Positions 6,665 through 45,136 of a stretch of DNA of 45,136 nt are shown here, piece after piece. The translations under genes and the position numbers were made by a program. Source of the stretch: Dimorphilus gyrociliatus (lineage: Eukaryota > Animalia > Annelida); assembly GCA_904063045.1 (NCBI GenBank), contig CAJFCJ010000089.1, forward strand, positions 1-45,136. The letters run 5' to 3'. The notes beneath the pieces are model-generated. The model saw nothing but the letters and a program-made list of their open reading frames with translations, was not told the origin of the DNA and made no database searches. The first letter of the stretch is position 1. The number at the start of each line of letters is the position of its first letter.

Positions 6665-7299
6665 TGTACAACTTTGGTTATATTTTACATGCTTGAACTC
6701 TATTATTTTATGCAACATATACATGTACATGTTAAAACCTATGCAAGAAAATGCTATAACATTGGCCAAACATAAGTCTGATTAGTCAGCTTGAAGGCTC
6801 ATCTTTAATCACCAATAAAGGTTTGGCCAAGTTATAATCTAATTAACTTGCCTAGGGTGTGGCCAAGTTATAATTCAATTAACCTTCCTAAATGTTGAAC
6901 CTTGTAACATCCTGTTACTAAAGATAAATATGAACTACACATTTCGGCAACTGTAAAGTGATGATTGGATTTCAGAGGCCAACCTCAAAGTATATAAATC
7001 CTCACTATTCTCATTTGGCATGCGGCTTCCATCTGGATCCAAGGACCTGGGAAGATAACCTGGAAACAACCTCCACTGGAACCTTCCATCTACTCCTCAA
7101 CATTGGAAGACAGTTTGGTAATTTGGCAACTTGCTATTACGAACTATCTACTCTGCTATTGAACTCTCATATTGTTACTTGCTTAAGTATTATTATTGTG
7201 AATAAACTGTTTAAATTTAAACATTTGTTTAAAGGTTTGAGTAGAACCAGTAGTGTTATAACTTGCAAATGCATAGATTTTGCCAGCAAGAGCAGTACA
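6665..7299 (+). mobile_element. Solo LTR (635 bp) of the Gypsy family, TSD GTGT
   Basis: Termini TGTAC...GTACA, with GTGT at 6661-6664 and 7300-7303. About 24 substitutions versus the LTRs at 18224 and 38100 (~96% by eye). Confidence 0.95.
6991..7206 (+). promoter_or_regulatory. LTR TATA box and polyadenylation signal
   Basis: TATATAAAT at 6991-6999 and AATAAA at 7201-7206 lie in the expected U3/R order and are conserved in all three LTRs. There is a duplicated GGCCAAGTTATAAT motif in U3 (~6825-6875). Confidence 0.55.
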
Positions 7300-9194: not shown

Positions 9195-10000
9195 TGAATA
9201 GGGGTGAAACCATACCTGGGTGAAATCGTACCTTGATGAAGTTTTAACTGTCAACATGAGAAAATTAAGAAATGAAATAATTAATTTATTTGTTTTAATA
9301 AATTTGTGATATAAAAGTACCAGTTTTTTTCAGGTCAGCCATTTTGAATTTGTTTGTTGATTACTTGATAAGAGAATCTTGAAATTGTATTATAAATATT
9401 TGTTTCAAAGTTTTCCACTGTTTTTCAAATAATAAATTAAACATTTCAAATCTGCACATTTTGAAATATGGCAATCAAGTGCAAAAATTGCAAACTTACT
9501 GTTTATGGAAGACAGAAGAGAAAATTCTGTTTGCTATGTAATGAGCTTCTTCATGAAAAATATATCATTAGTAAGAATTTTGTAATTCATTTGGTCAATT
9601 GTAAATATACAATTATTTTTGGTTTGTATTTATGAAAAGCTTCTCTCTGAGAAGATTATCAAATATCAGAGAAAAAAATATGGTGATATAGAGAAGAAAG
9701 TATTTGAAATTTGGAAAGATTATAGGCTTGGAAGGATATTAGCTGATGAACTATTAATCCAAAGTTCTTATATTTATACTCCATAGTTGTTATTATCTAT
9801 TCTTTTCTTTAGTTAACATATAGTAGAATAGCTCTTCAATACATACATTTTCATATTTTTTTTATTTCCATATGCATCAACAGCAGTAGTTTTACTTGGT
9901 CATAGCAAGGATTCACCCCTATTGGGTACAGATTCACCAGGAATGGGTACGGTTTCGCCTGTCTCCTGGTTTAACCCAGGTATGGTTTCACCCCTATTCA
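9195..10000. mobile_element. Non-autonomous DNA transposon (MULE-like) with 27-bp inverted repeats
   Basis: TGAATAGGGGTGAAACCATACCTGGGT at 9195-9221 has an exact reverse complement at 9974-10000. There are subterminal GGGTACGGTTT(C/A)ACC-type repeats and an internal transposase-like remnant. No TSD was found. Confidence 0.65.
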
Positions 10001-10003
10001 ATT

Positions 10004-10120
10004 TCTTTTTTGTTATAAATGACATTAGTGCGCCAGTATCACATATTGCAATTATTTCTCTTCCATTATGGTTTTTCAAATTGAACATCTTCTCTCCCTA
10101 ACTTGATTGCTAACACTGAT
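10004..10120 (-). mobile_element. Remnant of a retroelement second-protease (PR2) domain from a diverged family member
   Basis: FNLKNHNGREIIAICDTGALMSFITKK aligns with FRLKNQKGQEVIALCDTGALRSFITEK at ~42085-42165. The DTG motif is at 10032-10040. Confidence 0.7.
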
Positions 10121-14203: not shown

Positions 14204-17200
14204 TTAGTTTGTATTGATTTCCTTCCTCACTTCTCTATTTCTTCGTTCAACTAGTCCATTGCTCTGGCTTCTATAAGCTGTTGTTTGGATTTTCTCAATA
14301 CCTAATACCTTCATAAACTCTTTAAAAGCTTTACCAACAAAGTTTCTTCCTTGATCTGTCAACATTTGTTTTGGAATTCCAAAAATGGGAAAAAATCTGT
14401 TGAAAAGAAGGTTTGCAATTTCTTTACTGGTTTGCTGTTTGAGTGCATATAAAACTGTGTATCTACTGAAATGATCCACTATCACAAGTATGAATCTGAA
14501 TGACTTAACCATGGGTAAGGGTCCCATTATATCCATGGCTACCAACTCCATTGGTGATGCAGGGTGAAAGGTTTCTACCAAAGGGTATACTCTACTCCTA
14601 CCATTCATTTGTTCACACAAAGTGCAATCCTTTATTGAATTCTCAATCATAATCTTTAATTTTGGGTGCCAAAAGGTCTTTGTAATTATTTGTAATGTCA
14701 TTCTGGGTCCATGGTGATTGTGAATTTTATTTTTATGGAATTTAGGGAGCAGAGTTAGCATCAAATGGTCAGGTAAAACCAGAATGTTTCTTTCTTCAAG
14801 GATAATCCAGATCATTTCCTTGTGAACAAACATCTCCATTATGAAAGGTGTAAAAGTTCCAAAATAAGGAATAGGTAGCTGACCATCCAATGTTAAATAT
14901 TCTTTAATTGATTTTAAATTCACATCTTTTTCTTGCTCTGACTGTAAGTCAACAGAAGACAAATCAATTTTCTCTTCACTGTTATCACTGGTAGCTACAA
15001 AAGTTAACTCTGGTGTATGTTCATACTGTTCCATTTTAACTGAAATAGAGGGAGAATTCTCCTTTTTGATCTTTCCATGAATTAGCTCTTCAAATGTTAC
15101 TTTCCTTGGGGGTGTATATTCTTCTAATCTTGTTAATGCATCTGCTCTATTTTTTCGTCCTGTCACATAGTTAATTGTAAATTTTAAATCCATTAAAGCC
15201 ATGACCCATTTTGCTGTGCTGACATTCAATTTGTTTTGCTTAAATGTTTGTACTAGACTCTGATGGTCAGTATATAAAAAGAATGGCTTGTCTTGAAGGT
15301 AATGTAAAAATTTCTTTACAACCCAGTAAACCCCAAATGCTTCCTTTTGATAGGCTGCATATTTCATTTGATTATTGTTGAATTGTTTTGAAGCGTAGGC
15401 AATGGGTTTCATTGTTTTCTTCCCATTCTCATCTACATAAACTTGTTCAAGAACTCCTCCTACAGCTACATTCGATGCATCTGTTGTTAAGTGAAAATCT
15501 TTAGCAAAATCAGGTAGTTGTAATACAGGAGGGTTAATTACTGCATCTCTCAACTTGAAAAATGATTGCTTGGCTTCCTCAGTCCATTGCAATTTATCCT
15601 TTTTCCCATGTAGTTTCATTAACATATACAGAGGTTTAGCTACTCTTGCAAAATCTTGTATAAATTTTCTGTAATAGCCACAAAATGCAACAAAGCTTAG
15701 TAGTGAATTTGCAAACACTGGTGGCTGTAAATTATATAATTTATCTGTCTTGGACTTATCTGTTTCAATCCCCTTTTCTGATACAATGTGTCCCAAGAAT
15801 TGAACTTGTTCTTTCAAAAACACACATTTACTTAGTTTAATCTTAAAATTGTACTTTTGAATCTGTTGAAGAATGGTCTCCAATGCTTCCCAATGTTGGT
15901 CCAGCGACTTGGTAAATATTATTATGTCATCAAGGTAGTTTAGGCACAAATGCTTTACATCCTTTAGCACAAATGAATTCATTACATAACTAAAATGAGG
16001 AGGGGCATTGGTTAATCCAAAAGGCATCTTAATAAATTCAAACAAGCCAAAAGGTGTAATAAATGCTGTTTTAGACCTATCTTCTTTCTTGATGTTAATG
16101 TGGTGGTATGCACTTGTCAAATCCATTGTAGAAAAGAATTTATTTCCTCCTCCCAAATGGTCAAAAAGATCATCTTGATTTGGCAGTGGATACTTGTTTT
16201 TAACTGTCATTTTGTTTAGTTTTCTATAATCTACACACATTCGTAGACTACCTTCCTTCTTTCTTACGAAAACAATTGGTGAAGCCCAATTGCTCTTGCT
16301 TGGTTGAATAACTTTGCTTTTTACCAATTCAGCTATCTGTTGCTTACATTCTTCTTGTTTTTGAGGAGGCATTCTATATGGCCTTTGTCTATATGGTGTT
16401 GAACCTGGTTCAAGAGTTATTTCCAAGGGTGGTACCTCTGGATTACCAATATCAAATCTGTCTTCTGCAATAGTTTCTTTATATTTTGCCAGAATTTGGG
16501 TAACTTTGTTCTTCATCTCGGGATTTTCTTGTTCAATTGTTGTCTGAAGGGTATGTATTTGACTCTCATTCTTTTTCATAATAAGAGGAACTGGGTAAAA
16601 CCCTTTGAAAGATAAGTGTTGTGTTCCAACAGGGTAATTCTTTTCTGTACCTGGCTGGAGTATAATCTGTCTCTTGCCAAAGTCAAGGGTAGCTCCATTT
16701 TGTTGTAGAAAGTCACACCCAATAATACATTGTTGTGTAATGATTTTGTTGATCAGAAAGTGTTGTTTAATAATCTTTTCATTAAAATAAAGTCTGAGAA
16801 TGATTTCTCCACATATCTCGATGCTATTTCCTGAAGCATCTCTAGCATTTTTCACAGTTTGTTCTGGGAAGGATGCTTTTCCTTGAACTTGTCTTAATAC
16901 CTTTTTTGAAATGAAAGATCTGTCACTACCAGAGTCTATCAAGGCATCAAACTTAAAACCAGTATTAGTTTCAAATTGTCCAATAAATGTTGAAGCATTT
17001 CGCTCAGATTGTTTGCTTTGTAACAGCTGACAAGTGGATTCGTCACTATCTGAAAAACAGAGAATATCTTGAACTTCGTCGTTTTCTGACATGCTTTCAT
17101 TGTCTAATGTTTCTAATTTTTGTAGCTTAGGTTCCTCTTTCAGTATCGTCTTTGCTGGTTGATTTTTCTTATAATACCTATTTGTTGTAGTTGGTGCATA

Positions 17201-18163
17201 CTTTTGGACTTTTTGGCTTGAAAACTTTTCTTTAGTAGCATTTTTGTTGTCAGGTACATGCTTTCTATTCCAGAAATTTGGGGTTTCTGTAGAAGCATCT
17301 TTTCTGATTACCTGGGTCTTTTTGGTCTCTTTTCTTTGTTGAGTTTCCAATTTTGACACCATTGTGATCGGTTTTCTTTGAGTTAGTTTTAATGAAGTTT
17401 CTGCTTGCTTAGCAGCCTCATATAGTTCTGCCAATGTTTGACATTTAGGATGTAAGGTGTACACTAAATGTAGAATATCCTGTTGTAATCCTCTTTGTAA
17501 AACTTCCATCAGTTTTATTTCTTTCATAGTTGCAAGCAATTGTGGTTCCATTGGTCTAGGTGGAGAAAACCTCTTTATCAATTTCTTTGCTCTATTAACA
17601 AACTGAACCACACTTTCGCCATTCATTTGCTTTAAGTTAAGCAATTTCTCCTGATACTCCAAAGGATCTAGATCAAATTCGTCATGGAGGGCTTTCCATA
17701 TTTCCTCCACAGTAGGCTCTCCATCCAGAGCCAACACCAAATCCTTTGCGGGACCAGTTAAATAATCTAAAAGATTTGCTTTCACAACATCTTCTCCTAT
17801 CCAACCATAAGCATAACATGCCTGATTAAAGTCTTCTTTGAATTTTGAACACTCCTTGCTTCCATCATACAACTTGAGAATAGTTCTTTGAGGGCGGTCC
17901 CAAGCAGCCCTTAATGCTTGAATTACTGTTGTGATATCAACATTTGGGTTCTGTGCTGGGTGATGTGTTCCATCTCCATGATCTGTTGGAATTGTGATTC
18001 GATTTCTTTTCATTTCACTCACCAATCTATCATAGTCTTCAATTAGTCTTTGTTGCCTTTCTGACATTCCTGCTGGCTGAATTGTAATTGTTGGAGTTGC
18101 TGGGGTTGAAGGGTTAGAGTCTGTAACTGCCCCAGTGGCGTTTCCATTTCCTCCTTCTGCCAT
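14204..18163 (-). CDS. gag-pol: Gag-Pol polyprotein in a single frame, truncated just after the integrase catalytic Glu
   Basis: ATG at 18163 (MAEGG). It contains a retrotransposon-gag capsid, PR (LIDSG at 16928-16936; IIGCDFL), RT ([11 protein letters not shown]; YLDD at 15926-15937), RNase H (TDAS..E..TDH..D) and IN (HHCC; D,D35E). Confidence 0.95.
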   Translation of the reverse strand: MAEGGNGNATGAVTDSNPSTPATPTITIQPAGMSERQQRLIEDYDRLVSEMKRNRITIPTDHGDGTHHPAQNPNVDITTVIQALRAAWDRPQRTILKLYDGSKECSKFKEDFNQACYAYGWIGEDVVKANLLDYLTGPAKDLVLALDGEPTVEEIWKALHDEFDLDPLEYQEKLLNLKQMNGESVVQFVNRAKKLIKRFSPPRPMEPQLLATMKEIKLMEVLQRGLQQDILHLVYTLHPKCQTLAELYEAAKQAETSLKLTQRKPITMVSKLETQQRKETKKTQVIRKDASTETPNFWNRKHVPDNKNATKEKFSSQKVQKYAPTTTNRYYKKNQPAKTILKEEPKLQKLETLDNESMSENDEVQDILCFSDSDESTCQLLQSKQSERNASTFIGQFETNTGFKFDALIDSGSDRSFISKKVLRQVQGKASFPEQTVKNARDASGNSIEICGEIILRLYFNEKIIKQHFLINKIITQQCIIGCDFLQQNGATLDFGKRQIILQPGTEKNYPVGTQHLSFKGFYPVPLIMKKNESQIHTLQTTIEQENPEMKNKVTQILAKYKETIAEDRFDIGNPEVPPLEITLEPGSTPYRQRPYRMPPQKQEECKQQIAELVKSKVIQPSKSNWASPIVFVRKKEGSLRMCVDYRKLNKMTVKNKYPLPNQDDLFDHLGGGNKFFSTMDLTSAYHHINIKKEDRSKTAFITPFGLFEFIKMPFGLTNAPPHFSYVMNSFVLKDVKHLCLNYLDDIIIFTKSLDQHWEALETILQQIQKYNFKIKLSKCVFLKEQVQFLGHIVSEKGIETDKSKTDKLYNLQPPVFANSLLSFVAFCGYYRKFIQDFARVAKPLYMLMKLHGKKDKLQWTEEAKQSFFKLRDAVINPPVLQLPDFAKDFHLTTDASNVAVGGVLEQVYVDENGKKTMKPIAYASKQFNNNQMKYAAYQKEAFGVYWVVKKFLHYLQDKPFFLYTDHQSLVQTFKQNKLNVSTAKWVMALMDLKFTINYVTGRKNRADALTRLEEYTPPRKVTFEELIHGKIKKENSPSISVKMEQYEHTPELTFVATSDNSEEKIDLSSVDLQSEQEKDVNLKSIKEYLTLDGQLPIPYFGTFTPFIMEMFVHKEMIWIILEERNILVLPDHLMLTLLPKFHKNKIHNHHGPRMTLQIITKTFWHPKLKIMIENSIKDCTLCEQMNGRSRVYPLVETFHPASPMELVAMDIMGPLPMVKSFRFILVIVDHFSRYTVLYALKQQTSKEIANLLFNRFFPIFGIPKQMLTDQGRNFVGKAFKEFMKVLGIEKIQTTAYRSQSNGLVERRNREVRKEINTN

Positions 18164-18201
18164 ATTTACTTTCTCAAAACTTTTGAATAAACCAAAAGAA
18201 T

Positions 18202-18219
18202 ATCCTGTCGACTGCGCCA
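18202..18219 (-). promoter_or_regulatory. Primer-binding site, tRNA-Ser
   Basis: TGGCGCAGTCGACAGGAT lies 4 nt downstream of the 5' LTR. Its complement ATCCTGTCGACTGCGCCA matches the 3' end of invertebrate tRNA-Ser(AGA/CGA) as I recall it (ATCCTRCCGACTGCGCCA), with one mismatch. Confidence 0.8.
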
Positions 18220-18223
18220 AATT

Positions 18224-18858
18224 TGTACTGCTCTTGCTGGCAAAATCTATGCGTTTGCAAGTTATAACAATACTGGTTCTACTCGAACCTTTAAACAAAT
18301 GTTTAAATTAAAATGGTTTATTCGCAATAATAATACTTAAGCAAGTAACAATATGAGAGTTCAATAGCAGAGTAGATAGTTTGTAATAGCAGGTTGCCAA
18401 ATTACCAAACTGTCTTCCAATGTTGAGGAGTAGATGGATGGTTCCAGTGGAGGTTGTTTCCAGATGATTTTCCCAGGTCCTTGGGTCCAGATGGAAGCTG
18501 CATGCCAAATGAGAATAATGAGGATTTATATACTTTGAGGTTTGTCTCTGACATCCAATCATCACTTTACAGTTGCCGAAATGTGTAGTTCATATTTATC
18601 TTTAGTAACAGGATGTTACAAGGTTCAACATTTAGGAAGGTTAATTGAATTATAACTTGGCCACACCCTAGGCAAGTTAATTAAATTATAACTTGGCCAA
18701 ACCTTTATTGGTAATTAAAGATGAACCTTCAAGCTGACTAATCAGACTTATGTTTGGCCAATGTTATAGCATTTTCTTGCGTAGGTTTTAAGATGTACAT
18801 GTATATGTTGCATAAAATAATAGAGTTCAAGCATGTAAAATATAACCAAAGTTGTACA
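18224..18858 (-). repeat. 5' LTR of copy 1 (635 bp)
   Basis: TGTAC...GTACA termini, about two substitutions versus 38100-38734, adjacent to the PBS. The outer flank is GTGA. Confidence 0.95.
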
Positions 18859-23494: not shown

Positions 23495-23544
23495 GGCATT
23501 AAAAAATATAATATCCTGTAAATAACAGTCAAAATAAGAACAAA

Positions 23545-23745: not shown

Positions 23746-23779
23746 CAAATACTTTGTGTCTATTTGATTTTGTAAATAA

Positions 23780-26510: not shown

Positions 26511-26511
26511 A

Positions 26512-27579: not shown

Positions 27580-28319
27580 ATTTAAAAATATTATGGTAAT
27601 ATTCTAAAACAATTTACTGACAAATTCTTAGTCCTTTATAAGAAGAATGATAGGCCTAAAGTTCATGAAACACAGTAGTTTTTTTTACTCATTAAGGGTA
27701 TTTGCAGAGCTTAAAAACAATAACCTCAAGGAGCCGACAGATATCACTTTACAATTTAATTCTATTTATAGAAACAACAGTATTATAAACTCCTTTATTC
27801 TTTTACATGAACATAAAAAACATGAATTCATTTATTGATAATTACAGAATAAGAAAATGTTCATTGATTATAAATAGACTATGCCATTTTTCTAATTAGG
27901 AATCTTTTTATCATTTATTGCTGTCTTATTTAAGTTTTAATTGTTTTCGCAAAGAATACATCTTTATGAACCAACTGGTTCATAAGTTTGGTTAGGCAAA
28001 AGGCAAAAATAATTAATAATTTATATTTAAAATTTTCTGATTTTTTATTAACATCATAAATAATTACATCACTATTTTTGTATTGACATGAAAGAATCCA
28101 AACTCATCAAGAAAGTGCACACCTATTGGATAAAATGACAATCCTGGACACACTTATGGATATTTTGCACATCTACTTCTCCCTTATTTCACATTTAGGT
28201 TGAGGAAAATATTGGAAAATCACCCTGGTAGGTTATATAAACAACTGCCATTTCCTCACCTTTTAAAGTTTACTTATAGGCTACAATCTTGAAAATAGAT
28301 TACATTTGCTAATGTCAAA

Positions 28320-30890: not shown

Positions 30891-30970
30891 ATGGAAAATC
30901 CCAAAGGTAGTAACAGGCATTCAGTCCTGAATCAACTCCCTTAGTGAACAGGTCTAGTATTATTTTTATA

Positions 30971-32294
30971 TATTAGGTATGAATGAAAAGTTTTGGTCAC
31001 TGTGTGTTTTTTGTTAGAAATATTTGATGAATGTGATTAATTTTTGTGTATGTTAAAGCCTAAAGTATATGCTACAAATATTGATAATTTAATTTTTCAA
31101 TAGTCCCCTCCTTTTTCTATACAAGCCTGCCATTTGCTAGGAAGTAGAGTGATGCCGTTCTGGTAAAACAAGGTTGGCTTTCTCCTCAGAAAATCTTTGA
31201 CATCTGTCTTCAATTCCTCCAAATTGTCATAATGGGATCCTCTGATATGGTCCTTCAATCTCCCAAAAAGATAATAGTCAGAGGGAGCCAAATCAGGACT
31301 GTAGGCTGGGTGAGGGCATAATGACCACCCTTGATCTCTTATGAAATCTGTTGTGTAGAGACTTGTATGCAGTCTTGCATTATCATGCTGTAGTATCATT
31401 TGTTTTCCAGGTCTAATTCTATGCAACCTCTTCCTTAGTCTCTTTAGGGTCTCAACATATTGTATTGAGTTGACTACTTCTCCATACTCCATGAATTCAA
31501 TGTGGACTAAACCAGAATAGTCCCAAAAAACTGAGCACATCAGTTTTTCTGCTGACTTGGCCATTCTAAGCTTCTTGTCAGGTGGAGATGATGTGTGTTT
31601 ATAAGTCAAAGAAGACCTTTTAGATTGTGGATCATAGAGGTGTACCCAGGTTTCATCTCCAGTCACAATTTTTTCTAAAAAGTCTCTTCCTTCTGCCATG
31701 TATCTTTCAAGTAGCTCTATACAATGACTCACCCTCACCTGCTTCTGGTCCAGATTGAGAGCATAAGGAATCCATTTTGCACAGATCTTTCTGTATCCTA
31801 GCTCCTTTATAATTTTCCCTACAGTCTGTTGACAAATTTCTATTTGTTGGGCAATTGCTCTCTGAGAAATGGTCTGATCTTCTCTGATAAGCCTGTCAAT
31901 TTCTTCTCTATTCTGACCTGTTACAACTGTGCTTGGACGACTAGATCTTGCCAAATCTTCAAAATTTTTTCTTCCTTTTTTTATGTCAGATACCCACCTC
32001 CTTATTGAACTTTCACTCAGAGTTTCATCCCCACAAAAGCTTTTTATAAATTTGTCTCGCAGACACCTTCTCATGCACTAAAAATGCTATGATTGGTCAT
32101 TGATCGGAATGTGTGCACATGACTTGCAGTTGCTTATACCAAAATAAATTTGTAATGCCTCAACAGAATCGAATGAAAGTTTGCACAGTGAAAGTTTACT
32201 AATTTCCTAAGATTATTGGAAAGTATCAATGATATTAGTTAAGCCGTTTTAAAATTACAGCACAGTGACTGAAACTTTTCATTCGTAACTAATA
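30971..32294 (-). mobile_element. mariner DNA transposon, full length
   Basis: ~34-bp TIRs (TATTAGGTATGAATGAAAAGTTTTGGTCACTGTG, four mismatches between the two), TA flanks, ~1.32 kb. Confidence 0.93.
31097..32074 (-). pseudogene. mariner transposase (DD34D) with a damaged N-terminus
   Basis: WIPYAL, VTGDETW, QHDNARLH and YSPDLAPSDY are present. The true N-terminus (DQ*PIIAFLVHEKVSARQIYKKL) is in another frame and carries an in-frame TGA. Confidence 0.88.
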
Positions 32295-32527
32295 TATATA
32301 TTTATATTTTTCCAGATTCTCTTCCAATTTTTACATTTTCTGGGTAATTGTAGGCCAATACATTGGAAAGATTGTCTAATCTTTAGAAGTGTTTTCAGCA
32401 TGAGGAATCAATATAGTAACAGCACTGCAATATGAATGACAATAACACAAAAAGTCTAAAACATTTCTTAAAATCTTGCATTAGCAAAAATCAGATATTC
32501 GACATTTTTGATGATTAACTATTTGTT

Positions 32528-34181
32528 CTACTTTCTAATTGAAGTTTTTACACAAAAGAAAGGATTGTAATAAATCCCCAACATTTTTATTGTTTGTCCA
32601 TCTATTGGAAAATAATTCAAAATTTCATCATTCTTATAAATACCATATGATAAATTTTTCATTTCTATTTTAGAGCATTTTTTTTGTAGATTTTCAAATT
32701 TTGCAATTACTTTTTCAACTAACGAGCAGCTGCTAACATTGATTTGCTTTAATGATTCTAATGATTGTTTGAGTCCTTCACAAATATCAAAAAATCCATT
32801 ACTCATTTTCATATTCCCAGAAAAAAATATTTCTTCAATTTTAGAACATTTTTTTAAAAGAATTCCAAGTTTTTTGCATTGATCTTCTTCTAAATTGCAT
32901 TGTTGGACATCAATACATCGTAATGTTTTTGATGATTGTTCAAGTCCTTCACAAACTTTAGAAAATCCATTTCCCATTATCTTGTTACATTTTAAATCTA
33001 TTATTTCTATTTTTGAACAGTTTTTTAAAAGATCCCCAAATTCTGTGCATTGGTTTTCTTGTAAATAGCATTTGTTAAAATAAATATACTTGAGTGTTTT
33101 TGATGAATTCTTAAGTCCATTACAAACATTGCTAAATTCATTCATCAATAATTTATTATCTGAAAGATCTATTGTTTCCACTTTAGAACATTTTTCTAAA
33201 AGATTTCCAATTCTCTCAATTTGTTCATATTTTAATAAGCAGCTTCTAAAATTAATAGACTTTAATGTTTCTGATGATTGTTTGAGTCCTTCACAAATAT
33301 GAGTAAAACCATTATTTATATTCCAATACTTAGATAAATGTATTTCTTCTATTTTAGAACATTTTTTCAAAAGATTTCCAAAATTTTCGCAATCCACTTG
33401 AACAATCACTAAAATTAATATAATTCAATGTTTCTGAAGATTGCGCAAGACTTTGACATATCTCAATAAATCCAGCACACATACCGTTATTCTCAGATAA
33501 ATCTACTTTTTCTATTTTAGAACATTTTTTTAAAAGTATTCCCAATTTTTTGCATTGTTCTTGTCTCAAATCACAGTTCAGAAATTTAATAGACTTTAAC
33601 ATTTCGGAAGATTGTTCAAGATATTTACAAATATAAAAGTTGCCATTGGAGATTCTTGTATTGTTTGATAAATCTAATGCTTCTATTTTAGAACATTTTT
33701 TAAAAAGATTTTCCAATTTTATACATTGTTCTGATTTTAGAGAACAGTTGTTGAAAGCAATAAATTTTAATGTTTCTGATGATTGTTCAAGTCCTTCGCA
33801 AATGTCAAAAAAGCCATTTTGCATTTCAGGATTGAATGATAAATCTATGGTTTCTATTTTAGAACATTTTTTCAGAATGTTTCCAATTTTTGAGCAATGT
33901 TCTTGTTTTAAAGAGCAGTTATTAAAGACAGTACAATTTAATGTTTTTGATGATTTTGCAAGTCCTTCAAAAATAATTTTGTAGTTGTCAGTTTTCTCTG
34001 GCATATTGTTTTTTTCTAACCAAAATACAATTCTAACAATATCTTCTCTTTTCCATAGATTGAAATATAAAATTAAAATTTTTGAATATACAAAACATAC
34101 AAATATAAAATTTGAAATATTTAGTTGTGAAGATCTTGAAAGAATAAAATGACTTTCAGAGATTTCTTTGACAAAAGACAA
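32528..34181 (-). pseudogene. RI-like LRR gene with one frameshift at ~33400
   Basis: ORFs 33354..34181 and 32528..33409 carry consecutive 57-aa units (LKKCSKIETIDLSFNPEMQNGFFDICEGLEQSSETLKFIAFNNCSL). Confidence 0.85.
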
Positions 34182-34729
34182 GATTGGATATCCAGTGAAT
34201 TTCTTATGTTTAAGTACTAATAATAATCATAAAAACCTTGTTTACATAGGACAATAACAATAACATTTTAGGCTTATGAAATGGTTATAATATCAGTCAT
34301 GTTTTAAATTCGTAATATTTGCTTGTATCTAAAAAACATAACGTAATATTCTTACTCAAAAATATCTTACAGAAGGAGGGAAGCCATAGTAATAACCACC
34401 ATTTTAAATGGGTAATTGTAGTTATAAACATTTTATATTCATAAATTTCTAACAGTCACTCTATTAATTTACTAACTTTTAAATGTCAACGAAGTTGGGG
34501 AGAAGTTTCCCACTCTGAAAAAGTCAGCACAAGTTAGTCCTTTCAGTAGCAGGAGTATGACTAGATTGATGAAAAAAGGAGTATGTTTTCTCTTGGATAA
34601 AGAAAACTTCCATGTTAGAAAAGGCATTAATTTCTGAAACAATCCTCCTAGTAAACAGATCTAGTATAACTTTAGAATACAGTTATATTATTCCTACGAA
34701 TTGGTTATTTATATCATATTCTCTCAATT

Positions 34730-35190
34730 CTATATCCCTTCCTAAGTGGTTCACTCATAATTTGGTGCAATAGTCTCCTGCAATCCCAAAGCAAGAAAGT
34801 GCAAAAGCCATCAAGGAATGTACAGTTTTAAATAACTATATTGGATGATTGCAGATTTTCCATCAATGGGTCTGACAATTTTCTTTTGTGGCATATGGTG
34901 AAATTAAAAAATACATGAAGAATCTAAACACAGCACAACAGTTTAAAGATATAAATGACTCAAAGAAAACCATTCAAAAATGCAGAAACTGGATCAAGTG
35001 CTGTAGATTTAACTCCTATTTATTTATACAAGATATTTGGGCAAGATATATTTTTCCCATCAGACTTAACTGGTACACTACAATCAATATATTAATAATA
35101 CTAATAATAAAAGAAAAAGAGCTGTTCAACAGAATTCAAATTATTTTGAGGACTCTTCCAGCATTTCAAGTGCATATGTCTTATTAACTA
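34730..35190 (+). mobile_element. Possible highly degraded hAT-type transposase
   Basis: Weak fragments resembling YIPC..HSLNLV, C.TRW and F.FL...W motifs across frameshifts. Confidence 0.3.
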
Positions 35191-35442
35191 GTATGCATTT
35201 AAGTTTATTTTAATAGTTGACAATGCTTTCACTTTTTGTATGCATTCAGATGAATTTGTAAAAGAAGAAAAGCTTGATTCAATAAATAATCAAGAATATT
35301 TTTCTATTGACATTTCTAAGTTAAACCAGAAACTACATTGACATCAACTTCTAATCCATGGCTACTTTTCAACTAAAAGTAACAAAAGCAATATTTTAGT
35401 TGTTGCTACAAATATTTTTTGTCTATTTGATTTTGTAAATAA

Positions 35443-36604
35443 TTAACATGTGATCTTTACTTTAGTATTTTTGTTTTGCAGTCTTAAAATATATGATTGT
35501 TGATCCTTTGTTTGTTTACAGGCTCCAAAATTAATGATTCTTATAGTTTTAGATGATTGAAGTCCATCACAAATTTTGGCAAGTCCATTATCAACATTTC
35601 AATTTCCAAATAGAGAAATGACTTCAATTCTAGAACAACATTTTAACATTTTACCAATATTTATACATTGATTTTCACTTAGATTACAATCACTCAAGTC
35701 AATTTCTTTTAAAGTATTGCATAATGAATCAGAAATTGTATCACAAACAATCAATAATCCATTTCCTATTGCTCTATTGCCTGATAAATTAATTACTTCT
35801 AATTTGGAACAAACTTTCAAAACATTTCCCAAGATTTCACATTCACTACTCATTATTTCACATCTACTCAAATCAATCAATACCAAGGTTTTTGATGAGT
35901 GAATCAGTCCATCACAAATTTTTAAAAATCCACTTTTCATGCTCACATTCCTTGATATATCAAATATTTCTATATTATTACAAACATTCAACATATTTCC
36001 AATAAATGTACACATTGTACTAGTTAATTGACACTTTTTAAAATTTATCCTCTGTAAAACATGAGATGATTGAACAAGTCCATCACATATCTCTAATATT
36101 CCATTTCCCATACTATTATTCCAATGTAAATCAATTGTTTCTATATTAGAACATTTTTTCAGCAAATCTCCAACAAAAATACAATGAGTTTTTGTCAGAT
36201 TACATAAACTAAAATCAATATATTTCAATGTGTTTGATGAATTTTCTAATCCATCACAAATCTTTGATATTCCATTTGATATTTTCATATTACTAACTAA
36301 TAAAAATGTCTCTTATTTAGGACAATTTCTCAAAATATTTCCAACATCAACACACTGATTCTCTGTTAGCTTACAACCACTAAAATCAAGATATTTTAAA
36401 GTGTCTCTTGATTGTATAAATCCATCTTTAATCCTTGATAATCCGTTAAATATATTGAAATTACCAAATATTTCAATTGTTTCTAAATTAGAGCAATTTT
36501 TAAGTAAATTTCCAAAATTTTTACATCCATTTTCTGTTAGGCCACAGTAGCTAAATTGTAATTTTTTTAATGTTTTTGATGATTTCATTAGTTCATCAAT
36601 AATC
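35443..36604 (-). pseudogene. RI-like LRR array, duplicate of 23780-24900
   Basis: Colinear high identity to the 23780 copy. CGA has become TGA at ~35600, and there is a frameshift at ~36300. Confidence 0.85.
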
Positions 36605-36890
36605 TACAAATTGCAACAACATCATAACTTTTATGATGGAGAAAGGAGGACAAATTGTCTGTGGGAATGAGGAAATTGAAATGGTTTGTTTTGTTTTATA
36701 ATTATGAAAATTTAATTTTCATATCTTTATTTTGCCATCAACATCATTTTGTATTGATATTGATTTATAAGTCTATGTTTACTTAATGACAATTGAAGTA
36801 GTACAGACAGTAGATTTTCTCTTTAAATTACAGTAAAATAATTCAAAAATTTGGTGTCTCTTTTTTATTTTTTTAGAATGAAAATTCAAA

Positions 36891-37615
36891 ATGTACTCAA
36901 CTTATTCTTTTAAATGGTACTATCATTATTTCTTTAACTCATGCATATTGTCATTTGTTTCTAATATTTTTTATCTTCTTTTTCACATAGATAAGAATAG
37001 AAACAGGAAGTTTTTCAATATTGAAAAACTATCTTATCTATTTGATAATGTAGAAGAATGGATTGTTGATACAAAAAGTGAACTTGAATTTAAAATTAAA
37101 AAGTTAAAGAGAGAATCTACTAAATTTGATGGTTTTATCTTCATTGAACTGCTCTTTAAAACAAGAACATTGCTCAAAAATTGGAAACATTCTGAAAAAA
37201 TGTTCTAAAATAGAAACCATAGATTTATCATTCAATCCTGAAATGCAAAATGGCTTTTTTGACATTTGCGAAGGACTTGAACAATCATCAGAAACATTAA
37301 AATTTATTGCTTTCAACAACTGTTCTCTAAAATCAGAACAATGTATAAAATTGGAAAATCTTTTTAAAAAATGTTCTAAAATAGAAGCATTAGATTTATC
37401 AAACAATACAAGAATCTCCAATGGCAACTTTTATATTTGTAAATATCTTGAACAATCTTCCGAAATGTTAAAGTCTATTAAATTTCTGAACTGTGATTTG
37501 AGACAAGAACAATGCAAAAAATTGGGAATACTTTTAAAAAAATGTTCTAAAATAGAAAAAGTAGATTTATCTGAGAATAACAGTATGTGTGCTGGATTTA
37601 TTGAGATATGTCAAA
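36891..37615 (+). pseudogene. LRR gene fragment containing an inverted near-identical duplicate of 33455-33922
   Basis: 37146-37615 is the reverse complement of ~33455-33922 with about one substitution, fused to a different 5' segment. Confidence 0.8.
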
Positions 37616-37634
37616 AAAAATTTTTTTGATAAAA

Positions 37635-38099: not shown

Positions 38100-38734
38100 T
38101 GTACTGCTCTTGCTGGCAAAATCTATGCGTTTGCAAGTTATAACAATACTGGTTCTACTCGAACCTTTAAACAAATGTTTAAATTAAAATGGTTTATTCG
38201 CAATAATAATACTTAAGCAAGTAACAATATGAGAGTTCAATAGCAGAGTAGATAGTTTGTAATAGCAGGTTGCCAAATTACCAAACTGTCTTCCAATGTT
38301 GAGGAGTAGATGGATGGTTCCAGTGGAGGTTGTTTCCAGATGATTTTCCCAGGTCCTTGGGTCCAGATGGAAGCTGCATGCCAAATGAGAATAATGAGAA
38401 TTTATATACTTTGAGGTTTGTCTCTGACATCCAATCATCACTTTACAGTTGCCGAAATGTGTAGTTCATATTTATCTTTAGTAACAGGATGTTACAAGGT
38501 TCAACATTTAGGAAGGTTAATTGAATTATAACTTGGCCACACCCTAGGCAAGTTAATTAAATTATAACTTGGCCAAACCTTTATTGGTAATTAAAGATGA
38601 GCCTTCAAGCTGACTAATCAGACTTATGTTTGGCCAATGTTATAGCATTTTCTTGCGTAGGTTTTAAGATGTACATGTATATGTTGCATAAAATAATAGA
38701 GTTCAAGCATGTAAAATATAACCAAAGTTGTACA
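38100..38734 (-). repeat. 3' LTR (635 bp)
   Basis: TGTAC...GTACA termini, preceded by the PPT. The outer flank is ACAC (GTGT in element sense). Confidence 0.95.
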
Positions 38735-38747
38735 ACTTCCCCCTTCT
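38735..38747 (-). promoter_or_regulatory. Polypurine tract
   Basis: AGAAGGGGGAAGT abuts the 3' LTR. Confidence 0.9.
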
Positions 38748-38765
38748 TTGTGAAGATGAGTCCCT

Positions 38766-41185
38766 TCATCTTGATTTAATGAGAATTACAGGTGGTTGTT
38801 CTTCTTCATTAGTTTGATGTTGACTAAAGCTACAACTTTGTTTCATTAGTTTTGGGTTTTCAGGAGAGTTATCTGTGCTCTCACTTGGGGTAGCAATTTC
38901 TTCTCTTTGTTTTCTTCTTCCAATAATATAGTTGAAAATGATGATACATACCATTGACACTACAATACTCAAACAAATATTTCGTATGATAACATAAAGT
39001 GTTTTCCCAGGTTTATAGTACCAACTATGGAAAAACTTTTTAATTCCAGATAAATTGGGTACAATGCCATTTTTCTCTGCAACAGTGACCATGTTATCAT
39101 ACCTTGCCTGCTTCTGTTCCAGTGAACTGATAACTTGCTTAATTTTTGAGTGCTGGTATGCAATATCCTTCTTTACCCCATGGTGGAGTAGATCAGCTAA
39201 TCTGGCAATTTCAATTTTTGGTTCAGAAAGGTGATTGTGGATATGTAACTGCATGGATTTTGCAGACACAGTGTGAAATCTGCATCCTCTTTCTGAATAA
39301 TACACATACGTTTTGTCTTTCATTGGTTGGTTTCTTATAGGATTTAATGGGTTGTGAGTTGTTTTGTAGAATAACTTGTTAGACTTACACTCATTATAGG
39401 TAATCTCTTCAGGATTGACTTGCTGTAAAACATGAGTAACTGGTTCTACTTGGAAAAGCAGGTTGTTCATGGTGACAAGTAAAAATTGAGAACATTTGTT
39501 ATTCTTTTTTATCATGCTTAAGTCACAAACTACTTCTGTTGAGGCTATTGGTGAACATTGTTTAATTATAGCTAATTCTCCCATCTGACTACTGTGCATT
39601 CCCAACTCATTTGTTAACACTGTGGTCAATTGAGGATCCAAATTTGCTAGTAATGCCATCATTCTGCTTCTTTGAACAAATTGATTGCAGAGAAGACTTG
39701 ACAGCTGTTGGGTAAACTTTTTTAAATTCTTAAAATTTGAATCAATACCATGTAGTAAGGTAGATGTTTGGGCAGCTTCTCTCATTTCCAATGGGAATTT
39801 GTGGTATGGGTTTTTACTTATCTTATGTTTCAGTTTTGCTTCCTTCTTCATCTGCTTTTTAGCCATTCTCATGTGTAGAGTAAAATAAATTCCTTCATAG
39901 GTAATCTTAATTCTCTGGCTGGTGGTCCTTTATACCATATGCCCAATGTTGGTAATACCTTCTTTTTGATTCTTTTCTCACTGTATACATATTTTGAAAT
40001 CGTGACAGATTGTCTTGTTGCCCTTGTCCAATTGACTGCTTGCAGCATTTCTTGGATATAATAGTTATCCAGCTCCCAGTAAGATGGACTAATGGGTTGT
40101 TGTAGATGATATATCACAACTTCCTTGAGTGTGCCTTTATTTCTCATTAGTTTATACTTTGTGTTTGTTTCTCTGTACCATTGGTTAAGACTTGGTAAGG
40201 GGTTGTTTCGCTTGTATAGTATAATTTGTTCTTTAACTTTATTGGGATAGTTTAATAGTCGTTTTTCTTCATTTTTGCCAATCTTCTGATATTGTAGCAA
40301 ATTGTATAGGTGTTCCTTGCTTGTTTCCTGTATTAAACTCTGTTCCTCCAGTGGTACTAGTACTTTTGTTCCAGGACCACCAATTCCATCAATAAACTTA
40401 TCTTGATAAGGGATGTCCAGAATAGAATACCCTGGACAAGAATAGTGACCAGCAAATTTGATACAACTAATTCTGTTGCTAATTTTTATCCATGGTGATT
40501 GTTGCCCAAGTGTGTAATTATTCTTGAGGTTCCTAAAGACAATAATTGCCTCTTCTGTTTCACAATAGGACTGCCCTGGTAAACAATCTTCCAGGTAGTC
40601 CAGATTAGTTGTAATTTTCATATTAGGAGGTTGCCAATATGCTTTGCCAAACTGGATAATTGTGGTGTATTCCAGCACCTTGGTCGTTGTTGGCCATGTG
40701 TAGGCAGCAGGAAACTGATCTTGGTGGATCCAAGTGTTTCTTTTCACCATTAAAGGTTTTCCTTGAAAAGATCGTTTGTCTTTTATCATCTGTCTGCATT
40801 GATCATGAGTTACTTTGATAACTGAGTTAACAATCCTCCTCTTCTTTGCTCCAAAGAAATAGTAAGTGTAAAAATTAGTTCTTAGATACACTTGACATTT
40901 TACTGCTCTTGTTTCAATTTCTTCCAAGTTCAATTCATAGATATCAGCTGTAATTGTCTTGGTTTCTTGTGATTCTATATTACAAGTTGGCTCATCTGCT
41001 AGATCAAATGCCTGGCTTGGTAGTTGGTTAGAACAAAAGTATAATGGTGGTTTAAATGTTAAGGTAATGTTTGCACTTGTAACATGGGCACCTTGGTAGG
41101 ATGGTTTTGGGACTGTTATTGAGTGGATGCAGCCACAGATCACCATTACAGTCATCACTAGTGGAAGCCACAACATCTGTTTCAT
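38766..41185 (-). CDS. env: Envelope-like glycoprotein (~806 aa), class III fusogen-like; 1-nt deletion at 39909-39910
   Basis: Signal-like MKQMLWLPLVMTVMVICGCIHS, a Cys-rich ectodomain, N-glycosylation sequons (NIT, NYT, NWT, NLS), TM ICLSIVVSMVCIIIFNYII followed by GRRKQR, and a short tail. The frame is restored by comparison with 22541-22743. Confidence 0.85.
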
Positions 41186-44100
41186 GTTAGCTCTTCCTGT
41201 GTTGGCTATAGTTGAATGGTTGAAAATTTTGTGTTGTTGTTCCACTCTGATAGTTATTCCATCTTCTAACTCTATATATTGTGGTTCCACTTCTTGTTGG
41301 GAATCTAATTGTTCAGAGATGATTTTAGTCTCATCTAAAAATATGACTGACTCATTGTCTGTGTCACTTGTATTTTCTTTCTCATCTTGGGATGAATCTA
41401 CCACTATGAGGGACTCATTATCTGAATGGGTTATGTCAATAATTTCACCTTCAATAATTATTGACTCATTATCCGAATGGGTTATATCAATAATTTCGCT
41501 TTCAATAATTATTGACTCATCGTCTGAACTAGATATTTCATCTTCTCTATCAGAGATAATGTTTGCCTCTGAATCTGTATTTTGATCCAGTTCATTATTT
41601 GTTTCTGTGTCATCACTTTCAGATGAGCTTGAAGGTTCATTGAGACTGTAATTACTGTCTGTTTTGAAAGTATTGCTTGTGTCATAACCAGTATCAGAAT
41701 TAGTAACTTCCATCTCTGAGTCATCACTATCTGAACTTTCTGATGAAGAGTCATGCTGTCCCATCATGGCTATAGTGACTTTGTTTAGTTGAGGTTGCCT
41801 TATTCTTTCAGCCAGGTTCCCTTTCCTTCTATCAAATTTGAGAGAACACTGTTTAGCTTCAAAATTGAGGTTTGCTCCCACAGTTTGTAGGAAATCACAA
41901 CCAAGTATTATTGCTATGTCTAGATTTTCCATAACTATAAATTCTTGTTCCATACTTTCTCCAGCAAATTGGATATTCAGCTTTACGCTTCCTTTTTGCT
42001 TTAAAGCTTTCCCATCAGCTGAAGTTATAATTGGTAAGCCAATTGTTTCTTTATCCATAATTGTAACATCCATTAACTTGATTTCTTTTTCAGTAATAAA
42101 GGATCTCAATGCTCCTGTGTCACACAAGGCAATGACTTCTTGGCCTTTTTGATTCTTCAAACGGAATTGGAAGTCATTTCTTCCTTCTACCTGAGAAAGA
42201 TATTGGAGGTGTGTTATTTCCTTCTCCACAAGGTGAAAGATTGTTGTTGCTTCTTTCCCTGTTTCCAACTTATTAGATTCATTGGCTAGTCTTAATCTGC
42301 TACCATGTACCAACTTGCATGTATTATCATCCATTTGTATTTCATATATCCACTTTTGATGATTGACTTTTGTTATTCGGTATGGGCCTAACCATTTTAA
42401 AGAAGGGATTTTTGTTATTGCAATTCTTGCAGCATCATTTCTTAAGAATACTTCATCATCAACCTCAAAATATTTTGGAAGATTGAGATTTCTATTCTTT
42501 CTTTCCCTATATTGTTCTTTTGCCATGATGGATTTACAGAAGGCTGTAGCTCTTAACTGTACTAATTGCTGCTGGTGATTGAATACAAATAGTACATTTG
42601 TTTCAGGAGAGGTAGTATGCATTGTTACATCAATCAGTGTTCTTGTGCTGGTGCCAAAAAGAAGTTCCTGGGGTGGTAGTCTTGTACTTCCTACAGGTGA
42701 TTGATTCAAAAATGCTTGAATCAAGGGTAGGTTTGCAACCCAGTTATGCTGATTTTCTTCCACCACTAATTTATTGATTTCCTTCCTCACTTCTCTATTT
42801 CTTCGTTCAACTAGTCCATTGCTCTGGCTTCTATAAGCTGTTGTTTGGATTTTCTCAATACCTAATACCTTCATAAACTCTTTAAAAGCTTTACCAACAA
42901 AGTTTCTTCCTTGATCTGTCAACATTTGTTTTGGAATTCCAAAAATGGGAAAAAATCTGTTGAAAAGAAGGTTTGCAATTTCTTTACTGGTTTGCTGTTT
43001 GAGTGCATATAAAACTGTGTATCTACTGAAATGATCCACTATCACAAGTATGAATCTGTATGACTTAACCATGGGTAAGGGTCCCATTATATCCATGGCT
43101 ACCAACTCCATTGGTGATGCAGGGTGAAAGGTTTCTACCAAAGGGTATACTCTACTCCTACCATTCATTTGTTCACACAAAGTGCAATCCTTTATTGAAT
43201 TCTCAATCATAATCTTTAATTTTGGGTGCCAAAAGGTCTTTGTAATTATTTGTAATGTCATTCTGGGTCCATGGTGATTGTGAATTTTATTTTTATGGAA
43301 TTTAGGGAGCAGAGTTAGCATCAAATGGTCAGGTAAAACCAGAATGTTTCTTTCTTCAAGGATAATCCAGATCATTTCCTTGTGAACAAACATCTCCATT
43401 ATGAAAGGTGTAAAAGTTCCAAAATAAGGAATAGGTAGCTGACCATCCAATGTTAAATATTCTTTAATTGATTTTAAATTCACATCTTTTTCTTGCTCTG
43501 ACTGTAAGTCAACAGAAGACAAATCAATTTTCTCTTCACTGTTATCACTGGTAGCTACAAAAGTTAACTCTGGTGTATGTTCATACTGTTCCATTTTAAC
43601 TGAAATAGAGGGAGAATTCTCCTTTTTGATCTTTCCATGAATTAGCTCTTCAAATGTTACTTTCCTTGGGGGTGTATATTCTTCTAATCTTGTTAATGCA
43701 TCTGCTCTATTTTTTCGTCCTGTCACATAGTTAATTGTAAATTTTAAATCCATTAAAGCCATGACCCATTTTGCTGTGCTGACATTCAATTTGTTTTGCT
43801 TAAATGTTTGTACTAGACTCTGATGGTCAGTATATAAAAAGAATGGCTTGTCTTGAAGGTAATGTAAAAATTTCTTTACAACCCAGTAAACACCAAATGC
43901 TTCCTTTTGATAGGCTGCATATTTCATTTGATTATTGTTGAATTGTTTTGAAGCATAGGCAATGGGTTTCATTGTTTTCTTCCCATTCTCATCTACATAA
44001 ACTTGTTCAAGAACTCCTCCTACAGCTACATTCGATGCATCTGTTGTTAAGTGAAAATCTTTAGCAAAATCAGGTAGTTGTAATACAGGAGGGTTAACTA

Positions 44101-44605
44101 CTGCATCTCTCAACTTGAAAAATGATTGCTTGGCTTCCTCAGTCCATTGCAATTTATCCTTTTTCCCATGTAGTTTCATTAACATATACAGAGGTTTAGC
44201 TACTCTTGCAAAATCTTGTATAAATTTTCTGTAATAGCCACAAAATGCAACAAAGCTTAGTAGTGAATTTGCAAACACTGGTGGCTGTAAATTATATAAT
44301 TTATCTGTCTTGGACTTATCTGTTTCAATCCCCTTTTCTGATACAATGTGTCCCAAGAATTGAACTTGTTCTTTCAAAAACACACATTTACTTAGTTTAA
44401 TCTTAAAATTGTACTTTTGAATCTGTTGAAGAATGGTCTCCAATGCTTCCCAATGTTGGTCCAGCGACTTGGTAAATATTATTATGTCATCAAGGTAGTT
44501 TAGGCACAAATGCTTTACATCCTTTAGCACAAATGAATTCATTACATAACTAAAATGAGGAGGGGCATTGGTTAATCCAAAAGGCATCTTAATAAATTCA
44601 AACAA
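39869..44605 (-). CDS. pol: Pol-PR2-Env polyprotein segment (RT/RNase H/IN/GPY-F/second protease/acidic linker/Env)
   Basis: 1578 uninterrupted codons with YLDD (44486-44497), D,D35E, KWLGPYRI, CDTG and the Env signal, all in one frame. Confidence 0.93.
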   Translation of the reverse strand: MFEFIKMPFGLTNAPPHFSYVMNSFVLKDVKHLCLNYLDDIIIFTKSLDQHWEALETILQQIQKYNFKIKLSKCVFLKEQVQFLGHIVSEKGIETDKSKTDKLYNLQPPVFANSLLSFVAFCGYYRKFIQDFARVAKPLYMLMKLHGKKDKLQWTEEAKQSFFKLRDAVVNPPVLQLPDFAKDFHLTTDASNVAVGGVLEQVYVDENGKKTMKPIAYASKQFNNNQMKYAAYQKEAFGVYWVVKKFLHYLQDKPFFLYTDHQSLVQTFKQNKLNVSTAKWVMALMDLKFTINYVTGRKNRADALTRLEEYTPPRKVTFEELIHGKIKKENSPSISVKMEQYEHTPELTFVATSDNSEEKIDLSSVDLQSEQEKDVNLKSIKEYLTLDGQLPIPYFGTFTPFIMEMFVHKEMIWIILEERNILVLPDHLMLTLLPKFHKNKIHNHHGPRMTLQIITKTFWHPKLKIMIENSIKDCTLCEQMNGRSRVYPLVETFHPASPMELVAMDIMGPLPMVKSYRFILVIVDHFSRYTVLYALKQQTSKEIANLLFNRFFPIFGIPKQMLTDQGRNFVGKAFKEFMKVLGIEKIQTTAYRSQSNGLVERRNREVRKEINKLVVEENQHNWVANLPLIQAFLNQSPVGSTRLPPQELLFGTSTRTLIDVTMHTTSPETNVLFVFNHQQQLVQLRATAFCKSIMAKEQYRERKNRNLNLPKYFEVDDEVFLRNDAARIAITKIPSLKWLGPYRITKVNHQKWIYEIQMDDNTCKLVHGSRLRLANESNKLETGKEATTIFHLVEKEITHLQYLSQVEGRNDFQFRLKNQKGQEVIALCDTGALRSFITEKEIKLMDVTIMDKETIGLPIITSADGKALKQKGSVKLNIQFAGESMEQEFIVMENLDIAIILGCDFLQTVGANLNFEAKQCSLKFDRRKGNLAERIRQPQLNKVTIAMMGQHDSSSESSDSDDSEMEVTNSDTGYDTSNTFKTDSNYSLNEPSSSSESDDTETNNELDQNTDSEANIISDREDEISSSDDESIIIESEIIDITHSDNESIIIEGEIIDITHSDNESLIVVDSSQDEKENTSDTDNESVIFLDETKIISEQLDSQQEVEPQYIELEDGITIRVEQQHKIFNHSTIANTGRANMKQMLWLPLVMTVMVICGCIHSITVPKPSYQGAHVTSANITLTFKPPLYFCSNQLPSQAFDLADEPTCNIESQETKTITADIYELNLEEIETRAVKCQVYLRTNFYTYYFFGAKKRRIVNSVIKVTHDQCRQMIKDKRSFQGKPLMVKRNTWIHQDQFPAAYTWPTTTKVLEYTTIIQFGKAYWQPPNMKITTNLDYLEDCLPGQSYCETEEAIIVFRNLKNNYTLGQQSPWIKISNRISCIKFAGHYSCPGYSILDIPYQDKFIDGIGGPGTKVLVPLEEQSLIQETSKEHLYNLLQYQKIGKNEEKRLLNYPNKVKEQIILYKRNNPLPSLNQWYRETNTKYKLMRNKGTLKEVVIYHLQQPISPSYWELDNYYIQEMLQAVNWTRATRQSVTISKYVYSEKRIKKKVLPTLGIWYKGPPARELRLPMKEFILLYT
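41412..41528 (-). repeat. 51-bp (17-aa) tandem repeat in the acidic linker
   Basis: Units start at 41412, 41463 and 41514. Peptide: (DNES)IIIE(G/S)EIIDITHS. Confidence 0.9.
41830..42180 (-). other. Second retropepsin-like aspartic protease domain (PR2)
   Basis: ALCDTGALRSFI (DTG at 42113-42121), a flap-like ITSADGKALKQKG and IILGCDFL (41888-41909), in the same layout as PR1. Confidence 0.9.
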
Positions 44606-45136
44606 GCCAAAAGGTGTAATAAATGCTGTTTTAGACCTATCTCTTTCTTGATGTTAATGTGGTGGTATGCACTTGTCAAATCCATTGTAGAAAGAATTTA
44701 TTTCCTCCTCCCAAATGGTCAAAAAGATCATCTTGATTTGGCAGTGGATACTTGTTTTTAACTGTCATTTTGTTTAGTTTTCTATAATCTACACACATTC
44801 GTAGACTACCTTCCTTCTTTCTTACGAAAACAATTGGTGAAGCCCAATTGCTCTTGCTTGGTTGAATAACTTTGCTTTTTACCAATTCAGCTATCTGTTG
44901 CTTACATTCTTCTTGTTTTTTGAGGAGGCATTCTATATGGCCTTTGTCTATATGGTGTTGAACCTGGTTCAAGAGTTATTTCCAAGGGTGGTACCTCTGG
45001 ATTGCCAATATCAAATCTGTCTTCTGCAATAGTTTCTTTATATTTTGCCAGAATTTGGGTAACTTTGTTCTTCATCTCGGGATTTTCTTGTTCAATTGTT
45101 GTCTGAAGGGTATGTATTTGACTCTCATTCTTTTTT

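Follow-up and report, generated by a model that had tools for sequence, protein, structure and literature searches.

LTR retroelements are normally described as having one protease, which is encoded ahead of the reverse transcriptase (RT). Retropepsins work as dimers, not in cis on a nascent chain. In other viruses, as with the alphavirus capsid autoprotease and the flavivirus capsid-anchor cleavage, a viral protease parts a cytosolic protein from the signal of a downstream glycoprotein, and internal signals are cut by host signal peptidase. The element described here, in which a second retropepsin domain (PR2) stands besides the canonical protease (PR1), raises the question of how an element with a single ORF can detach a secretory fusogen from the replication proteins, which belong in the cytosol, without premature capsid maturation.

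Several described systems come close to it. Atlas virus (Belpaoviridae, PMC9094657) also makes a single polyprotein, from which an internal envelope precursor must be excised; this belpaovirus has an Env of class II that is phlebovirus-like, and the portions of that paper covered here mention no second protease. The GAG-POL-ENV errantiviruses of Chary and Hayashi (eLife 2026, PMC13524379) are likewise single polyproteins, again with no second protease mentioned in the portions covered. Supplementary file 1 of the same work tabulates Annelida_Polychaeta_Dgyr_errantivirus_1 (below, Dgyr_errantivirus_1), with a gB-type (HSV/gB) env, 7 copies of >98% identity, and an ORF labelled 'GAG-POL', not 'GAG-POL-ENV'. 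As far as the portions covered go, the paper reports no second protease, the word 'protease' occurring once in its main text and not at all in 7 supplement files.

Our element very likely belongs to the Dgyr_errantivirus_1 family, being matched on tabulated features and not on sequence. The 12-nt primer site is identical and lies 4 nt from the LTR, the published LTRs are about 630 and 635 nt against 635 nt here, and the published span is about 9315 nt against 9318 nt. A chromodomain is reported after the integrase of Dgyr_errantivirus_1; in our element Pfam Chromo gave no match at any E value up to 10, nor did a profile made from one sequence. The family has been mobile recently, as the 7 published copies are >98% identical and the LTRs of the two copies studied here are 99.7% identical. 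Thus the family is very likely catalogued already, while PR2 in it is without report in the literature searched. More generally, the search, which covered few subscription journals, found no paper on a retroelement with more than one protease among the titles and abstract openings listed.

A second retropepsin downstream of the integrase

The window, meaning the whole stretch of DNA analysed, comprises 45,136 nt of Dimorphilus gyrociliatus (GCA_904063045.1, contig CAJFCJ010000089.1, forward strand 1-45,136), and holds two partial copies of the element (Table 1). The long ORF of copy 2 runs from the C-terminal half of RT through RNase H, integrase, PR2, an acidic linker and a hydrophobic signal into the first part of env. 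The in-frame PR2 follows the integrase, with only ~35 residues between it and the SH3-like integrase module, and has the linker, the signal peptide and a class III (gB-type) env downstream. The element otherwise has LTRs, a primer-binding site, a polypurine tract, the order gag-PR-RT-RNase H-IN and a gypsy-type RT, and departs from the usual single protease upstream of RT by the second one after the integrase.

Table 1. Features of the element and its remnants in the window
Feature	Position	Strand	Remarks
Solo LTR	6665..7299	+	96% identical; 4-bp target duplication GTGT
Isolated broken fragment of a diverged PR2-type protease	9999..10085	-	29 codons with DTG, flanks lost
Copy-1 ORF, gag-PR1-RT-RNase H-IN	14204..18307	-	cut off inside integrase at about 14212
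PR1, canonical protease ahead of RT	16631..17011 (approx.)	-	DSG; IIGCDFL
Copy-1 5' LTR	18224-18858	-	primer-binding site at 18208-18219
Copy-2 3' LTR and polypurine tract	38100..38749	-	LTR 38100-38734, 635 nt, TG...CA
Class III (gB/rhabdo-G-like) env ectodomain and C-terminal TM helix	38766..41119	-	frame break near 39.9 kb
Env transmembrane helix	about 38916-39002	-	hydropathy
Copy-2 ORF, 1594 aa	39869-44653	-	no internal stop
Predicted internal signal peptide from Met1157	41120..41185	-	hydropathy
Acidic Ser/Asp/Glu-rich linker, ~190 aa	41186..41761	-	
KVTIAMM motif immediately downstream of PR2	41762..41782	-	candidate cleavage junction
PR2, second retropepsin domain	41819..42187 (about 41820-42190)	-	~aa 823-945 of ORF 39869-44653
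PR2 ILGCDFL	41888-41908	-	aa 916 of ORF
PR2 catalytic Asp codon	42119-42121	-	within LCDTG at aa 843 (42127)
Integrase	42284..43333	-	H2C2 zinc finger, rve core, GPY/SH3-like C-terminus
RT, RNase H and connection of copy 2	43334..45136	-	continues off window; frame breaks at 44.6-44.9 kb

A sequence-only reading had proposed a second aspartic protease downstream of the integrase that keeps the catalytic and substrate-pocket motifs, and this is borne out by the agreement of motifs, four Pfam cut-offs and predicted fold. PR2 has the same DTG, flap, ILG template and fold as the clan AA retropepsins (Ty3/gypsy PR, HIV PR, EIAV PR, Ddi1), and differs from them in being placed after the integrase, as the second copy in the same polyprotein. 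Its DTG lies at aa 845-847 of the ORF, and the catalytic D and G and a later G are invariant across a 38-row retropepsin alignment that includes it. By the flap and ILG template of clan AA retropepsins (PMC2642776, as far as covered), SADG falls on the flap column and ILGCDFL is the ILG-helix motif. PR2 alone exceeds the gathering cut-offs of four Pfam families, namely RVP_2 (31.6 bits, cut-off 20.3, E 1.6e-7), gag-asp_proteas (30.4 bits, cut-off 28.2), RVP (28 bits, cut-off 20.7) and Asp_protease_2 (27.3 bits, cut-off 24.3). In six frames of the whole window, a two-motif protease pattern matches PR1 and PR2 only. Against a profile of 60 other gypsy proteases PR2 scores 67 bits and PR1 78 bits, and PR2 does better than 15 of 20 members scored with their own family left out, this panel having been collected with a profile seeded on PR1 and PR2. 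GC3 and base composition of PR2 are like those of the remainder of the ORF.

An AF2 model of PR2 from a 38-sequence alignment shows a retropepsin fold with pLDDT 84.8, a fold favoured by the input since the alignment is composed of retropepsins. The single-sequence model was unusable (pLDDT 42.5). The top Foldseek matches of the model are Ddi1, EIAV PR and HIV PR (E about 1e-6 to 1e-5), while a PDB sequence search gave weak ASPRV1 matches only (E about 0.05). On the whole, PR2 is a real, intact-looking second retropepsin in a gag-pol-env element, and is likely an active protease.

The predicted structure of the soymovirus ORF VII protein (Caulimoviridae) also matches PR2, at rank 2 with TM 0.69 and 21% identity. 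The fold of this protein (BFVD P15634, 'uncharacterized protein 7') is that of a retropepsin, and blueberry red ringspot virus likewise has an uncharacterized protein that matches PR2 structurally. Unlike PR2, which sits inside a polyprotein, ORF VII is a stand-alone ORF of a non-enveloped plant virus; its function is described as unknown in the covered part of PMC3289790, and that of PMC13308828 holds nothing relevant on it. Going by these predicted structures, there may be reverse-transcribing viruses in which the Pol protease is not the only protein with a retropepsin fold.

Both proteases in one element

Within the window PR1 and PR2 sit in different copies, and the window ends before copy 2 reaches a PR1 of its own. 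Where they overlap, over 2366 nt, the copies are 99.66% identical. A 5579-nt contig from run X1, possibly the source of the window, covers env, PR2 and RT and extends 202 nt beyond the window end, where it reads like the copy-1 sequence leading to PR1. An X4 contig connects RT to the LTR, and the 1647 nt between them is the copy-1 distance. Coverage in run X6 is limited to two short pieces. Because of the copy overlap and the X1 and X4 links, we take PR1 and PR2 to be parts of one 9.3-kb element.

The frame breaks of copy 2, near 39.9 kb in env and at 44.6-44.9 kb in RT, are absent from the X1, X4 and X5 contigs; copy 1 is open across the RT break sites, and a relative (P0009) reads through the env break site. 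These breaks are probably errors in, or private to, that copy. A programmed env frameshift near 39.9 kb was also considered, and was rejected on the continuity of P0009 there and the unbroken run contigs. The family most likely has a single gag-pol-PR2-env ORF within about 9318 nt.

Origin of PR2

PR1 and PR2 share 29% identity over 122 aa; a recent local duplication of PR1 is rejected as the source of PR2 on this low value, in accordance with the sequence-only reading. Outside the PR2 family they are nevertheless mutual best BLAST matches among 63 proteases (49.3 bits, vs 41.6 and 47.0), and among the 20 of 63 protease rows with G-x-D-[FW]-L, GCDFL is confined to PR1, PR2 and P0004, the only named relative of PR2. 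The retropepsin phylogeny suggested as a check neither supports nor rejects a common clade: PR1+PR2 appears in 0 of 200 bootstrap trees of the careful tree, and the free trees place the two apart, without firm support, whereas the tree constrained to the clade is 1.43 log units better (AU p 0.535). A 31-row set, from which 32 near-copies and long or surplus rows had been dropped, gives AU p 0.49. By these comparisons PR2 may stem either from an internal duplication long ago or, by capture, from a different gypsy lineage.

It had further been suggested that PR2 was captured together with env as a cassette. This may have happened, the sequences pointing neither way. In the only env relative with genomic context (L001), a gypsy element, env is an ORF of its own, and there is no protease before env and none after the integrase. 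An additional 476-aa ORF (L001:8694-10124) lies 3' of env in this element, whose env is gB-type.

Constraint on PR2-type sequence

The broken PR2-type fragment of the window, which was detected through protein similarity, has 65% aa identity to PR2, and over its 29 codons pS is 0.86 and pN 0.20 (Fisher p 1e-7), with differences of 8/3/18 by codon position. As read from this comparison, PR2-type sequence is shown to be under purifying selection; the three selection tests of PR2 against P0004, in contrast, were not significant (p 0.11, 0.17 and 0.26). Among run substitutions (40 of 150 rows listed), 0 of the 25 evaluated coding ones fall in PR2 and 6 in the linker.

Because the fragment has lost its flanks, the constraint concerns the PR2 lineage and not necessarily the post-integrase position; the selection may have acted earlier, while the protease still stood ahead of RT in a donor element. 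P0004, likewise without element flanks, is a gene model of D. gyrociliatus with 60% identity to PR2 over 102 aa. It holds the C-terminal part of a PR2-type protease, without the catalytic motif, fused to a TIR domain, a fusion that is probably an annotation chimera.

Searches for the layout in other elements

The best 120 RT relatives are at most about 43% identical, and the named ones are Ty3/gypsy. Among the 82 of them with a single RT and a single integrase, none has a protease after the integrase in the same ORF; only 5 of the 82 reach at least 270 residues beyond the integrase core, and separate ORFs are invisible to this survey. Seven database proteins with a protease after an integrase were rejected as concatenated gene models, having two RT or two integrase domains. 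In two relatives (P0072 and P0132) Pol continues in frame into a signal-like segment, an unannotated ectodomain and a TM helix, with no second protease, and this may be an env-like ORF that has not been described before. P0059, the closest RT neighbour in a quick tree (by a long-branch join), has its chromodomain at aa 1746-1799, between RNase H and integrase and not behind the integrase.

The stretch of integrase C-terminus plus PR2 was found in 0 of 591 candidates among proteins of 876-2790 aa and in 1 of 529 among proteins of 381-2000 aa, which is P0004. Scans of IMG/VR gave no relative, the ESM Atlas gave no usable match, and a JGI metagenome scan with the env alignment confirmed 0 of 595 pattern matches; a second JGI scan returned L001 and L002 only.

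The envelope region

Env has a signal peptide, an ectodomain and a TM helix, the signal and helix as judged by hydropathy, and is gB-type as judged through its relatives. Among 1.84 billion representatives the env region has 11 relatives. Three of these match the rhabdovirus fusion domain (Rhabdo_glycop_FD), one above cut-off, and two match Glycoprotein_B, one of them also Monjiviricetes_fusion; the env of the window itself matches none of these three families. Conserved across the relatives are cysteines and two aromatic loop motifs, and they start with signal-like N-termini. No R-x-K/R-R site was found in the env region. In the copy-2 ORF, the signal at Met1157 is the sole Kyte-Doolittle peak > 1.8. 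The linker before it has 30% D+E and 3% K+R (aa 965-1140) and includes a tandem duplication of 51 nt at 41412-41520.

A possible role of PR2 in processing

PR2 lies at the boundary between the cytosolic and the secretory parts of the polyprotein. Our leading reading, to which we give a probability of roughly 0.5, is that PR2 cuts Gag-Pol free of the membrane-anchored linker and Env precursor. The whole element would be translated as one polyprotein, which the internal signal would direct to the ER; host signal peptidase would then free the Env ectodomain, leaving Gag-Pol, PR2 and the linker tethered at the ER membrane. Crowding there could let PR2 dimerize and cut its own flanks, the KVTIAMM junction being a candidate site, so that Gag-Pol would be released early and PR1, which has to await capsid assembly, would be kept inactive until maturation within the particle. 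The counterpart of KVTIAMM in P0004 is KITVAMM, and the residues ahead of the motif diverge.

The sequence-only reading had PR2 cutting Env off the integrase and thereby exposing the internal signal peptide. A processing role near the integrase/Env boundary survives as the leading inference, but exposure of the signal by PR2 is unlikely, as ~190 acidic residues separate the two and a retropepsin has to dimerize. Host signal peptidase would cut an internal signal anyway, and PR2 is probably dispensable for this step. The alphavirus and flavivirus enzymes that make a comparable cut are serine proteases, and the alphavirus one cuts in cis beside the signal, unlike PR2 with its required dimer and its distance of ~190 residues. 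Against any necessity of PR2 also stand the fusions without a second protease in P0072, P0132 and, in the part of its description covered, Atlas virus, as well as a diverged X5 contig, described below, from which PR2 is deleted.

A full division of labour, in which PR2 acts early and near the membrane to uncouple Gag-Pol from Env while PR1 matures the capsid, is a tentative extension that we consider rather doubtful. If true, it would be a previously undescribed way to build an enveloped particle from one ORF, and the published invertebrate errantiviruses, roughly 1500 in number, may include further cases of the layout that have escaped notice.

The readings that compete with this one differ in what they make of Env and of the position of PR2. 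PR2 could be active and yet have nothing to do with the release of Env, which would start from its own Met, PR2 trimming the integrase C-terminus or cutting a host protein. A Met right at the signal peptide (Met1157, with A at -3) could indeed start Env separately, which speaks against a single polyprotein, as does the published label GAG-POL, taken from the covered portions of PMC13524379; moreover, the env relatives are called as stand-alone ORFs, that of L001 included. Purifying selection is compatible with any active role, and soymovirus ORF 7, of the same predicted fold, is a possible parallel. But in the window the frame is open from Pol through PR2 and the linker into env and none of the 25 run substitutions that were evaluated introduces a stop there, no pyrimidine-rich acceptor is found in the 400 nt upstream of Met1157, and no sense-strand splice joint occurs among the joints listed from the run contigs. 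We regard an Env-independent role as unlikely.

Alternatively, PR2 may be a passenger that is redundant with PR1 and kept in frame only because env follows behind; recombination or template switching would have brought it in, with PR1 or some other gypsy element as the donor and perhaps together with env. Both PR2-type relatives are without flanks, so the constraint may predate the present position, and the searches made found no other element with the layout. One contig also shows a derivative that does without PR2: in the diverged X5 contig 19 (about 85-90% identical) a joint at 41755/44772 leads in frame from gag-PR1 and the beginning of RT to linker and env, and RT, IN and PR2 are missing. 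Yet the motifs and profile score of PR2 equal those of canonical proteases, its composition speaks against a recent foreign insert, and the adjoining linker varies freely while PR2 does not; redundancy of this kind seems to us unlikely. Much less probable still is an assembly chimera or the nested insertion of a second element. The several frame breaks of the window copy and the place of PR1 and PR2 in different copies would fit it, but contigs of X1, X4 and X5, the last from another study, each span the IN-PR2-linker junctions, and the 9318-nt span is that of the published multi-copy element. A nested element around PR2 is rejected, no LTR, gag or RT having been found there. As for X5 contig 19, this derivative is possibly a non-autonomous Gag-Env form.

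Antisense RNA and other features of the window

The X5 contigs skip three GT...AG stretches of 59-66 nt that are antisense to the element (42034-42093, 39354-39412 and 38416-38481, +). In the major X5 contig, 60 nt inside PR2 are missing. Read antisense, these 60 nt have the form of a canonical GT-AG intron, as do the two other stretches, so splicing of an antisense RNA is a more probable cause than loss from the genome. This suggests that spliced antisense RNA is abundant and possibly a silencing precursor.

Copy 2 (flank 38099) ends in GTGT, as in the target duplication of the solo LTR, and copy 1 (flank 18859) is preceded by TCAC, which hints at a GTG/CAC target preference of the element. 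Decayed pieces of this element, or of a related one, lie at 22031-22745, the env piece with 94% nt identity and the connection/integrase piece with 31% aa identity. A tandem cluster of host leucine-rich-repeat genes occupies 20100-37630, with a unit of 171 nt (57 aa); within it, one segment has been duplicated recently (23746 to 35409, 97%), and another is present as an exact copy in inverted orientation (33452-33920 and 37147-37615). By eye, the ORFs neighbouring the element resemble GPCRs, LDLa-LRR and chitin-binding proteins, which suggests that the host is an animal. Those at 31097-32077 (-) and 22952-23494 (+) look, again by eye, like mariner and Tc1 DDE transposases.
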